Shown here piece after piece: positions 11,393-14,486 of a stretch of DNA of 64,000 nucleotides. Positions within the stretch are counted from its first letter, which is position 1; each line of letters begins with the position of its first letter. The stretch covers positions 1 through 64,000 of the forward strand of contig JAVKIH010000008.1 of the NCBI GenBank assembly GCA_031459625.1. Reading direction: 5' to 3'. Both the position numbers and the translations under genes were made by a program. The notes under the pieces were generated by a model. It did no database searches, was not told where the DNA came from, and saw only the letters and a list, made by a program, of their open reading frames with translations. The stretch is from Candidatus Geohabitans tengchongensis (GTDB lineage: Bacteria > Sysuimicrobiota > Sysuimicrobiia > Sysuimicrobiales > Humicultoraceae).

Positions 11393-12838
11393 CTACGGCT
11401 CCAGGCGGATGGCTACCATCTGGATGTTCGTCATCTCCTCCATGGCGTAGCGCACGCCCTCGCGGCCGATGCCGCTGCGGCGGTTGCCGCCGTAGGGCAT
11501 GTGGTCGGCGCGGAAGGCCGGGGTGTCGTTCACGACCACCCCGCCGAAGTTGAGCCGCCGGATCGCCTGGAAGACCCGCCCCAGGTCGCGGGTGAAGACC
11601 GCCGCCTGGAGGCCGTACTCGGTGGCGTCGGCCTGGCGCAGCGCCTCCTCGAAGTCGTCGGCGGCGATGACCGAGGCCACGGGCGCGAACGCCTCCTGGG
11701 CCACCACCTTCATCTCCGGCCGGACGTCGGTGAGGACGGTGGGCCAGACCACGGCGCCCTCGCGCCGGCCGCCGGTGACGACGCGGGCGCCGCCCTGCAG
11801 GGCTTCGGTGATCCAGGCCTCGATGCGCTCGGCCTCGCGCCGGTCGATCATCGGGCCCACGTCCACCCGCTCGTCCAGCGGGTCGCCCACCACCATCGCC
11901 TCGCTGGCTTGGACGAAGCGGTCGAGGAAGGGCTCGTAGACACGGCGCTCGGTGTAGATGCGCTGCACGGAGATGCACACCTGACCGGAGTTGTAGTAGG
12001 CGCCCACGGCGCAGCGCCGGGCCACGTACTCCAGGTCGGCGTCCGGGGCGATGATCACCGGCGAGGTGTTGCCGAGCTCCAGCGTCACCTTCTTCAGCCC
12101 GGCCAGCCGGGTGATGCGCTCCCCCACGGCGGGGCTGCCGGTGAAGGTCACCTTGGCCACCCGGGGGTCGGTGACGAGCCACTCCCCCACCGTCCCGCCG
12201 GGGCCGTGCACCAGGTTGAGCGCCCCGGCGGGCAGCCCGGCCTCCTCCAGGACCCGGCAGAGGCGGACCGCGGTGAGGGGCGTGGCGCCGGCCGGCTTCA
12301 GCACCACCGTGTTGCCCGCCGCCAGGGCCGGGGCCACCTTGTGGGCCACCAGGTTCAGCGGGAAGTTGAAGGGCGTGATGGCGGCGATGACCCCCACCGG
12401 GCGGCGCACCCAGAAGCCGAAGTAGCCCTCGCCGGCGGGGACGGCGTCCAGGGGGACCGTCTCCCCGTGCAGCCGGCGGGCTTCTTCGGCGGCGATGGTG
12501 AAGGTGGTGATCCCCCGGTCCACCTCGATGCGGGCGTACTTCAGCGCCTTGCCCGCCTCGGCGGCGATGGTGCGGGCGAACCCCTCCCGGTCGGCGGCGA
12601 TCAGCTCGGCGGCGCGCCGGAGGATCGCGGCGCGGCGGTGGACCGGCATCTCCGCCATGACGGGCGCCGCCCGCTGGGCCGCCTCCACCGCGGCCTCGAC
12701 GTCCTCCCGCCGGGCCACGGGCAGGGTGCCCAGCACCTCGCCGGTGTACTTGTTCCGCACCTCATCGGGCGCACCGCCGTCCACCCACCGGCCGCCGATG
12801 AAGAGTCGGTACTCCACGGGAGCCTGCGTGCGCTCCAC
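11393..12838 (-). CDS. Aldehyde dehydrogenase family
   Basis: ITPFNFP, FTGS, LELG, GQVCIS, EAFAPV; GGAGG SD before GTG 12838. Confidence 0.93.
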   Translation of the reverse strand: MERTQAPVEYRLFIGGRWVDGGAPDEVRNKYTGEVLGTLPVARREDVEAAVEAAQRAAPVMAEMPVHRRAAILRRAAELIAADREGFARTIAAEAGKALKYARIEVDRGITTFTIAAEEARRLHGETVPLDAVPAGEGYFGFWVRRPVGVIAAITPFNFPLNLVAHKVAPALAAGNTVVLKPAGATPLTAVRLCRVLEEAGLPAGALNLVHGPGGTVGEWLVTDPRVAKVTFTGSPAVGERITRLAGLKKVTLELGNTSPVIIAPDADLEYVARRCAVGAYYNSGQVCISVQRIYTERRVYEPFLDRFVQASEAMVVGDPLDERVDVGPMIDRREAERIEAWITEALQGGARVVTGGRREGAVVWPTVLTDVRPEMKVVAQEAFAPVASVIAADDFEEALRQADATEYGLQAAVFTRDLGRVFQAIRRLNFGGVVVNDTPAFRADHMPYGGNRRSGIGREGVRYAMEEMTNIQMVAIRLEP

Positions 12839-13189
12839 GGACGTCACCTCCCGCACTCTGGTCTGTCTCGATCATAGCCCGGCGTGCCCACCCCAGGGAC
12901 TCACAGAGGGCGCGACGGCCGTCACCACGCGGGCGATCACTCGCCGCGGGGGCATGGGTGATGCCTGAAAACGGGGAGCCTTGAGGCGCGCGCAGCTCTT
13001 CGCCGGTCGGACCGGCGGTCGTCCTGGCGGGGTGATGCGGCAGGGTGGGTGGAACGCCTTCGGCGTGCCTGCGACGTCCCGGCTACGCCTGGGCCCCACA
13101 GCGGCGGCAACCCCGCACGACCCCGGCCGCCTTCGCCGCGGCGTCGGAGCCGTCGAGGTCACCGAGCCGCAGATCCGCCGCTGGCGCGG

Positions 13190-13219
13190 CTAGTTGTTGT
13201 TGTTGTTGTTGTTGTTCAT
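13190..13219 (-). CDS. Poly-asparagine micropeptide MNNNNNNNN
   Basis: ATG-(AAC)8-TAG; AGAGGAGG SD with GGAGG 7 nt upstream; 59 nt downstream of the AsnRS-like gene on the same strand. Confidence 0.85.
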   Translation of the reverse strand: MNNNNNNNN

Positions 13220-13278
13220 CCGTTCGCCTCCTCTCTGACTGGCGTGACCGGCACTCGGCCCGGTGTGACAGAGACCGC

Positions 13279-14217
13279 TCAGGCCATCGCGTACTCCCGC
13301 AATCCGTACCGGGCGTCCACGGGGAAGGGGATGACCGTGGTGACGTCGCTGGCGCCCCACAGGTACTGGATCAGCCGGTCGAACCCCAGCCCGTAGCCGG
13401 CGCGGCGGACCGGGTTGCCCTCGAAGAGCGCCAGGTAGGGCTCGAAGACCTGCGGGTCGCCGCCCGCCTCGACGAGCTGCCGGTACATCACGGAGGTGTA
13501 GAGCTTCTCCCGCAGGATGGCGACGTCGTGCTCCCGCGCCGCCGAGCCGAAGGTCTCGCCGCTCAGCGGCAGGAGCAGGTCGCAGCACTCGACGGTCCGC
13601 CCGCCGTTGTGCCGGCTGTCCAGCATGTTGAAGAACTTGATCTCGCGCGGGTAGCGGATCACTGAGACGATCCCGTACCGGTCGGTCAGCCGGGCTTCGT
13701 CCGCCGCGCTCAGGTCCGTGCCCCACGGCAGCCCCAGGTCACCGATGGCCTGCTCGTAGGGGACGACGGTGAACGTGGTCAGGTCCTGGAGCAGGGCGTC
13801 GCGGCGCGGGGCGGGCAGGGCGGGGTGCTCCAGGGCGGCGTGGATGACGTGGCGCACCAGCCGGTGCTCGTGGGCCACCAGGTCCTCCAGGTCCCAGTCG
13901 CGCGCCTCCGCCTCGACCAGCACGAACTCACACAGGTGGCGTCCGTCCGCGCGCGGCTCCGCCCGGAAGGAGCGGCCGCGCGTGATCACCCGCGGCAGGT
14001 CCCACCGCACCACGGCCACCTCCAGGTCGAGCTGGGCGGTCTGCCGCAGGAACTGGGTGCGGCCGAGGAAGTCCAGCCGGAAGACCGTCGGGACGTTCTC
14101 GCACGCCCCGGTGCCGGGGGTGATCTCGGGCGTCTCGAGCTCGATGAAGCCCTCGCTGCGGCAGAACTGGAAGACGGCGTCCATCATCGCCGCCCGGAAC
14201 TCGACCAGGTCACGCAA
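13279..14217 (-). CDS. Class IIb aminoacyl-tRNA synthetase paralogue, catalytic domain only (AsnRS2 / asparagine synthetase-like)
   Basis: Motif 1 GFIELETPEI, motif 2 SFRAE..RHLCEF, motif 3 GYGLGFDRL; no N-terminal OB anticodon domain; probable TTG start after GGAGGG. Confidence 0.85.
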   Translation of the reverse strand: MRDLVEFRAAMMDAVFQFCRSEGFIELETPEITPGTGACENVPTVFRLDFLGRTQFLRQTAQLDLEVAVVRWDLPRVITRGRSFRAEPRADGRHLCEFVLVEAEARDWDLEDLVAHEHRLVRHVIHAALEHPALPAPRRDALLQDLTTFTVVPYEQAIGDLGLPWGTDLSAADEARLTDRYGIVSVIRYPREIKFFNMLDSRHNGGRTVECCDLLLPLSGETFGSAAREHDVAILREKLYTSVMYRQLVEAGGDPQVFEPYLALFEGNPVRRAGYGLGFDRLIQYLWGASDVTTVIPFPVDARYGLREYAMA

Positions 14218-14370
14218 TTCCCATCCCTCCCTGCAGGCCACGCGGGCCCGTCGGTGTGTGGGCGCACTGCGCCCGACTCGTGCACGAACGGGGAACCCCT
14301 CCGGTCCGGATGCCCGTGGGCGATGCGGTCGGTGGCCGTGTCACCGTTCGGGGGCGGCGAGGGCGGGGAC

Positions 14371-14402
14371 AGGAAAAGCGCCGGGAGGCGTCTCCCGGCG
14401 CT
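14371..14402 (-). terminator. Intrinsic terminator (attenuator) in the leader of the AsnRS-like gene
   Basis: Minus strand AGCGCCGGGAG-ACGC-CTCCCGGCGCT followed by TTTCCT. Confidence 0.8.
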
Positions 14403-14427
14403 GCACGATGGCGTACTCCTGCTGCAT

Positions 14428-14460
14428 CCCTTCTCCGCCTCTCCGGACGAAGTTAAAGGG
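14428..14460 (-). promoter_or_regulatory. PyrR-binding RNA hairpin (anti-antiterminator)
   Basis: Minus strand CCCTTTAACTTCGTCCGGAGAGGCGGAGAAGGG matches PyrR consensus elements CUUUAA and UCCNGNGAGGY; CCCTT/AAGGG closing stem. Confidence 0.8.
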
Positions 14461-14486
14461 TCTCGTCCTGCACGCTTGCCAGGCCC

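Follow-up and report, generated by a model that had tools for sequence, protein, structure and literature searches.

A poly-asparagine mini-gene behind an asparaginyl-tRNA synthetase paralogue linked to pyrimidine synthesis in Candidatus Geohabitans tengchongensis

Behind a gene for a paralogue of asparaginyl-tRNA synthetase (AsnRS), the genome of Candidatus Geohabitans tengchongensis (assembly GCA_031459625.1) carries a real and unusual mini-gene that consists of a start codon, eight asparagine codons and a stop. We propose, with a probability of about 40%, that ribosomes translate this mini-gene from the 3′ end of the enzyme transcript and that its peptide thereby supplies the enzyme with free asparagine. 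The enzyme itself, judged from its sequence relatives and gene context, is likely an entry enzyme into pyrimidine synthesis by an undescribed route. The window analyzed here is the 64,000-nucleotide stretch at positions 1 to 64,000 of contig JAVKIH010000008.1, and the features that bear on the argument are as follows.

13190–13219, minus strand: mini-ORF, M-N8-stop, read from the sequence
13190–13192, 13193–13216 and 13217–13219, minus strand: TAG, eight AAC codons and ATG of the mini-ORF
About 13227–13234/13236, minus strand: Shine-Dalgarno sequence AGAGGAGG, ending 7 nt before the ATG
13279–14217, minus strand: AsnRS catalytic-domain paralogue, 312 aa, TTG start
14371–14463, minus strand: PyrR-type leader, with an intrinsic terminator stem at 14377–14402
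13033–13193, plus strand: what is left of a convergent gene; its stop and that of the mini-gene overlap in CTAG
11393–12856, minus strand: aldehyde dehydrogenase (ALDH) gene, PF00171, a neighbour outside the unit

The unit of Shine-Dalgarno sequence (SD), ATG, (AAC)8 and TAG spans 13190–13234 on the minus strand, and the sequence confirmed what the initial annotation had described, a perfect (AAC)8 between ATG and TAG with a well-spaced SD in a GC-rich background (G+C is 73% for both the window and the genome). Among the 13 perfect trinucleotide runs of at least five units in the 2.76-Mb genome, (AAC)8 was the longest and the sole A/T-rich one, and no other poly-Asn frame occurred among 754 SD-led frames of 5–20 codons in the whole genome. 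For a start, a stop and an upstream GGAGG to surround a random position by chance, the probability is ~1e-5; if the stop is left out of the count, given the CTAG that it shares with the stop of the convergent frame, a probability of ~1e-3 remains for the SD and start at the mini-gene. AAC is the normal asparagine codon of this genome (6686 of 6987 Asn codons in long frames), and the purity of the run is therefore uninformative on translation.

The stop of the enzyme gene and the ATG of the mini-gene are 59 nt apart, with no terminator in between. A terminator scan of the minus strand between the mini-ORF and the ALDH gene, which starts 333 nt beyond the mini-gene, likewise found no U-tailed terminator, as had been stated in the initial annotation. 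The AAC repeat remains unpaired in the predicted RNA fold, fold and terminator scans found no switchable RNA structure on the mini-gene strand, and an Rfam search of the mini-gene itself gave no match. On the opposite strand, the remnant aligns to residues 250–297 of a 297-aa convergent frame in a related contig (L024) and matched no Pfam family; its last codons hold a 5-bp hairpin (13177–13190, −9.7 kcal/mol).

The pattern ATG(AAY)5 was found in one of the 94 genomes of the phylum, namely the source genome. Two metagenome contigs (L024 and L030), whose enzyme is 98% identical to that of the window, carry a mini-gene at the same place, with a GTG start, seven codons including one for arginine, and a stop (MNNNRNNN). 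The 14-nt block around the SD is identical in both, and the spacer before this block is 22 nt shorter. The sister species thus keeps SD, start, frame and stop, which supports the view that this looks like a genuine mini-gene linked to the enzyme gene upstream of it. Of the marks of a translated gene that had been named with it, the preserved frame was found, with a run of 8 versus 7 codons; synonymous AAT was not, and an arginine codon interrupts the run. Between the two species the mini-frame differs by three substitutions and one lost codon; in the enzyme gene, 25 of 313 third positions have changed. The mini-frame has thus evolved at roughly the pace of silent sites and contains the arginine codon, so that the evidence of selection on the peptide is weak.

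In L024 the mini-gene faces a convergent gene (297 aa) as its next neighbour, and no ALDH gene lies within 5 kb; the mini-gene is therefore no attenuator of ALDH. With linkage not conserved and no terminator present, this role was rejected, as the initial annotation had done. In runs X7 and X12, ALDH stands on a separate record. A one-off assembly artefact was also rejected: over a 2-kb stretch, the sequence is unchanged in a contig from run X4, which belongs to the same study as the possible source, contigs of runs X5 and X7 from two other studies span the mini-gene, and the sister contigs carry its variant. Run X4 is an RNA library stored in contig form and so does not bear on transcription. 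Depth dips of ~3 bases at the mini-gene bin in X5 and X7, obtained with a tool that drops rows at repeats, would fit a mini-gene one codon shorter.

The enzyme upstream matches PF00152 only; without the N-terminal OB-fold anticodon-binding domain it does not have the domain composition of an AsnRS, and the full AsnRS of the source genome is encoded on contig C23. It scored below the cut-off for the asnS, ND-aspS and asparagine synthetase A models and far below those of PRK06462 (68.6 bits versus 368, and 46.1 versus 309), which by score places it outside the archaeal asparagine synthetase A group (AS-AR); no close AS-AR sequence was found among 46 proteins scanned. Its AlphaFold model (pLDDT 90.9) was nearest to AsnRS (Z 35.2, rmsd 1.9, 290 aligned, 29% identity), and the comparison with AS-AR gave Z 30.0 at 21% identity. 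When the enzyme was aligned with the AsnRS and the second AspRS of its own genome, it followed AsnRS rather than AspRS at the two separating pocket motifs (L-x-L-E versus L-Y-K-Q, and E-x-E versus D-x-E), whose positions presumably set asparagine versus aspartate specificity. An A-C-E motif is conserved in 95 of 106 relatives of 280–420 aa. In one protein, P0155, an intein lies inside the AsnRS-like domain. The partner of the mini-gene is neither an AsnRS nor, by score, an AS-AR. According to the available part of the source (PMC3532385), AS-AR (PDB 3p8t, 1nnh) is likewise a stand-alone class IIb catalytic domain with no anticodon-binding domain, but the enzyme is closer to AsnRS, lies far under PRK06462, has the A-C-E motif and occurs in a pyrimidine context.

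This context was assessed at 23 orthologous loci of 70–82% identity, being those with DNA behind the gene and several of them from the same species: pyrD lies directly behind the enzyme in 21, and an Asn-rich mini-frame behind it in none. The gene order in sister genera is enzyme, pyrD, pyrF, pyrE, and the source genome has pyrD-pyrF-pyrE on contig C12, apart from the enzyme. Domain fusions join the AsnRS-like domain with MGS, dihydroorotate dehydrogenase (DHODH) and PRTase domains in P0191 and with MGS in P0183. The enzyme is carried by 10 of the 94 genomes of the phylum, and carA was found in 0 of these 10 versus 70 of the 84 others (by genus, 0 of 5 versus 25 of 26), counts in which kin are not independent and which include the unpublished genomes G008 and G018 among the 84. 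Counter to this pattern, genus g3 has neither carA nor the enzyme, and several non-carriers in the family also lack the pyrB-pyrC pair.

CarB was not found in the source genome. Speaking against the proposed route, one gene there barely passes the ATCase cut-off and another passes that for PyrC; by their neighbours, we read these as purine-degradation and hydantoinase-type genes. The ATCase match is one of two carbamoyltransferases that lie with a carbamate kinase-like gene in a purine-degradation-type cluster (G000 C12:26500–40600). Genus g8 (G007, G016, G023) has pyrD and carA, with no pyrB over the cut-off and no match to the paralogue. A B12-binding domain was matched on contig C45, outside the window.

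The leader before the enzyme gene matched Rfam family RF00515 at 45.7 bits (E 1.8e-4; gathering score 54), and its terminator has an 11-bp stem followed by a T run. Leaders of the same family were also matched in L024 and L007; a second score, of 46.2 bits (E 2.9e-3), was likewise below the gathering score of 54. By pattern search, the leader is the sole such PyrR-type site in the genome, and a frame on contig C9, found by its motif, is pyrR-like. As in PyrR-regulated pyr operons (RF00515), a PyrR-type site and a terminator precede the first gene, and pyrD-pyrF-pyrE follow in sister genera; the operon differs in that its first gene is the AsnRS paralogue, not pyrB-pyrC-carAB, and in that the leader score is under the gathering threshold. 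An SD-led frame of 28 codons (window 14344–14430, minus strand), kept in L024, runs through the leader terminator. Upstream of the enzyme in L011, L013, L017 and L025, an SD-led frame of 7–8 codons ends just before the leader terminator; an Rfam search of these frames gave no match, and they are perhaps a different pyrimidine attenuator of the sister genera.

With respect to asparagine, the source genome encodes an archaeal-type non-discriminating AspRS (ND-AspRS) over the cut-off, GatB and AsnRS, and AsnA was not found in it. Its one AsnB-family gene lies among glycosyltransferases, scores 549 bits as an exopolysaccharide amidotransferase versus 480 for TIGR01536, and is under the PRK09431 cut-off. 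Given ND-AspRS and GatB and no housekeeping-type asparagine synthetase, asparagine would therefore be made on tRNA. The archaeal-type ND-AspRS is present in only 5 of the 10 carrier genomes. Thermus thermophilus and Deinococcus radiodurans have the same set of AsnRS, second archaeal-type AspRS and GatCAB, make asparagine on tRNA, and are thought to derive free asparagine from protein breakdown; the available part of that source mentions no dedicated gene that releases free asparagine (PMC4206432), which is the role proposed here for the mini-gene.

In the mechanism that we propose, a shortage of pyrimidines would open the PyrR-type leader, and transcription of the enzyme gene would continue across the 59-nt gap as far as the mini-gene. 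Asn-tRNA made by GatCAB would then be used by ribosomes to produce the poly-Asn peptide, and peptidases would degrade this peptide to free asparagine for the enzyme. Dihydroorotate equals asparagine plus one carbonyl, and asparagine, bicarbonate and ATP would therefore be the simplest chemistry; given asparagine, ATP and either bicarbonate or CO2 as the one-carbon donor, the enzyme would form dihydroorotate in a step that would replace CarAB, PyrB and PyrC. Enzyme and asparagine source would rise together when pyrimidines are short. We favor this ribosomal supply of asparagine because it fits the 3′ position of the mini-gene, the lack of a switch, and the stand-alone and tandem copies and locus L064 described below. 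The enzyme does not require the mini-gene, since all 23 orthologous loci lack it and no AsnB match was found in 8 of the 10 carrier genomes either. Asparagine supply is a poor fit to this independence of the enzyme in sister genera, and to genomes outside the phylum that bear AsnB.

Outside the phylum, GTDB was scanned for GGAG followed by a start, a run of Asn codons and a stop. Of the 23 loci that matched, 16 were protein starts or short mixed frames and 7 were clean SD-led poly-Asn mini-genes (two in Iainarchaeum, two in actinobacteria, and one each in a Paenibacillus, a Myxococcaceae and an alphaproteobacterium). Both AAT and AAC occur in those of Iainarchaeum, and L067 carries a tandem pair (N16 and N12). 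In L057, L059 and L062, the next long gene is convergent, and these 3 of the 7 therefore cannot be leaders. At L064 the mini-gene stands behind genes for an adenylation-thiolation (A-T) protein and a thioesterase-like protein, with a HemK-like methyltransferase gene behind the poly-Asn frame. The adenylation pocket, read by motif offsets, is D-L-T-K-V-G-E-V-G. It differs by a single residue from either of two codes that PMC12283262 names under Asp/Asn, and the pocket of this NRPS module would be predicted to be of Asp/Asn type. GatB is present in the L064 genome, in which AsnB, AsnA and AsnRS were not found.

AsnRS was not found in five of the seven outside genomes and is present in two; GatB was present in 5 of the 5 tested, and AsnB-family genes in 4 of the 5. 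The AsnRS paralogue was found in none of the seven. Among 201 genomes around G094 and 151 around G098, no new clean SD-led mini-gene was found except at L086, where an AT-rich poly-Asn frame of an archaeon (L086:1501, N10-KIS) is followed by a small Cys-rich frame and a radical SAM gene. Among the 25 of 45 plasmid matches listed, only ordinary asnS was seen. Several features of these neighbourhoods may be recorded here. In Iainarchaeum, the poly-Asn frames are the last in a series of small SD-led frames (L057:2216–2500, L067:2583–3054), which is transcribed away from an ACT-domain gene, and L057 faces a pair of queuosine transporter-like and tgt-like genes. In actinobacteria (L063:3014–5519, L075:375–2875), an Asn-rich frame lies behind DUF6355 genes and is accompanied by a hairpin, an MFS transporter gene and a convergent PurU-like gene; conserved in two genomes, this frame could be a true leader.

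In viral contigs, query A1 gave no match and the same SD pattern gave one locus, L092. Here a poly-Asn frame lies 130 nt before a distant member of the enzyme fold (a clade 27% identical to the window's enzyme), with a hairpin (z −3.5) and a T run between the two. Two further SD patterns (54 and 13 loci) yielded no new case with at least six Asn, and the pattern without SD gave 120 loci in viral contigs, 32 of them with short Asn frames in an AT-rich background and none beside the enzyme. The AsnRS-like clade comprises 161 marine phage loci (L095–L174, L400–L479 and L480), one of which has a poly-Asn mini-gene. In 150 of the 161, a tRNA-Asn(GTT)-like gene of 83–102 nt with a long variable arm lies behind the phage enzyme, and L092 is one of seven loci, among those with enough DNA, that lack it. 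The phage pair is possibly a minimal synthetase with its own type-II tRNA-Asn; no pyrD, pyrE or pyrF was found within 1.5 kb of the 161 loci. In P-SSM2 and P-SSM7, phage AsnRS catalytic-domain genes are annotated as 'tRNA ligase'. With 0 of 7 outside genomes and 1 of 161 phage loci, a general link of poly-Asn mini-genes to this enzyme family was not found. The position of L092 suits a plain attenuator equally well; L092 and the window tie poly-Asn frames to the enzyme fold twice independently, which favors neither supply nor sensing.

Leader-peptide attenuators with runs of a single amino acid, such as trpL and hisL, resemble the mini-gene in being very short frames of one codon type with a good ribosome-binding site beside a gene for that amino acid. 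Mycobacterial poly-Cys short ORFs are leaders of this kind according to the available part of 10.1101/834739. The mini-gene shares with them the run of codons and the start, but it lies 3′ of its partner and faces a convergent gene, has neither a conserved upstream position nor an overlapping terminator/antiterminator switch on its strand, and, unlike in those systems, its partner already has a PyrR-type attenuator.

A ribosome sensor might also operate at the 3′ end: stalling on the Asn codons when Asn-tRNA is short would alter the stability or 3′ processing of the enzyme mRNA, so that the enzyme, under pyrimidine control at the 5′ end, would respond to asparagine as well. The short terminator-free gap behind the enzyme gene suits this explanation, as does L092, where the same frame, a hairpin and a T run precede a related gene, and codon runs for a single amino acid are, in the available part of 10.1101/834739, a hallmark of ribosome sensors. 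Yet there is no downstream gene to control and no switchable structure was found on the minus strand, and the stand-alone and tandem copies in L057, L059 and L067 have no evident target, so that we regard a sensor as unlikely. To our knowledge, no sensor of such 3′ geometry has been described. We consider it quite unlikely that the frame is instead a relic, an Asn leader left after an operon split or the loss of its target, with slippage keeping or restoring the perfect repeat. Restriction to one genus, near-neutral change with the arginine interruption and the weaker GTG start in L024 and L030, the decay of the neighbouring convergent gene in the window, and the location of pyrD-pyrF-pyrE elsewhere would all agree with a relic; against it, SD block, spacing, start and stop were kept although the spacer lost 22 nt, and no orthologous locus has an Asn gene behind the enzyme as a possible target.

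It is very unlikely, in our view, that the repeat acts as RNA, either by binding an Hfq-like protein through an (AAN)n tract in the minus-strand transcript or as the U-rich terminator tail of the convergent gene on the plus strand. Hfq binds AAN repeats and the genome has an Hfq-like gene over the Pfam cut-off, but its product is under both NCBIfam cut-offs. On the plus strand, L024 and L030 share the 5-bp GC hairpin and the T-rich run behind it, yet in the window only a remnant of the convergent gene is left beside a perfect repeat. Neither role explains the SD and the start at 7 nt. That archaea and a phage have copies in which AAT and AAC are mixed, complete with SD, start and stop, suggests that the amino acid is what matters. 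The initial annotation had leaned to a substrate or precursor, that is, an intact RiPP-type peptide on which the adjacent synthetase paralogue, or an enzyme encoded elsewhere, would act. A gene with an ATP-dependent ligase fold does adjoin the mini-gene, and the HemK-like methyltransferase of L064 and the radical SAM gene of L086 also speak for this reading. Because the mini-gene is missing at the 23 orthologous loci, however, it is probably not a RiPP precursor: peptide and enzyme do not co-occur there, the enzyme is a pyrimidine-operon gene, and neighbours of transporter or tailoring type are unrelated and not conserved. The peptide is Met plus an Asn run, with no leader or recognition region; very short RiPP precursors without a clear leader exist, and this feature alone is not decisive. 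We therefore take an intact peptide as substrate to be highly improbable, and what survives of the precursor role would be a source of free asparagine.

In the open-access literature, we found no description of poly-Asn mini-genes or of an AsnRS paralogue that makes dihydroorotate. Many prokaryotes make asparagine only on tRNA, and the source of their free asparagine has been left to general protein turnover. The full proposal joins a two-part shortcut, in which tRNA-made asparagine is released via a throw-away poly-Asn peptide and converted to dihydroorotate in one step, with a general class of 'amino-acid export' genes, and in this breadth we hold it to be doubtful. If it is true, the poly-Asn mini-genes of archaea, actinobacteria, alphaproteobacteria and marine phage would feed Asn-consuming enzymes such as NRPS modules, and translation would have a novel use, in making a product that merely carries one amino acid. 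A supply role would account for a class of frames overlooked by gene callers, and the partner enzyme points to an entry into pyrimidine synthesis without carbamoyl phosphate.
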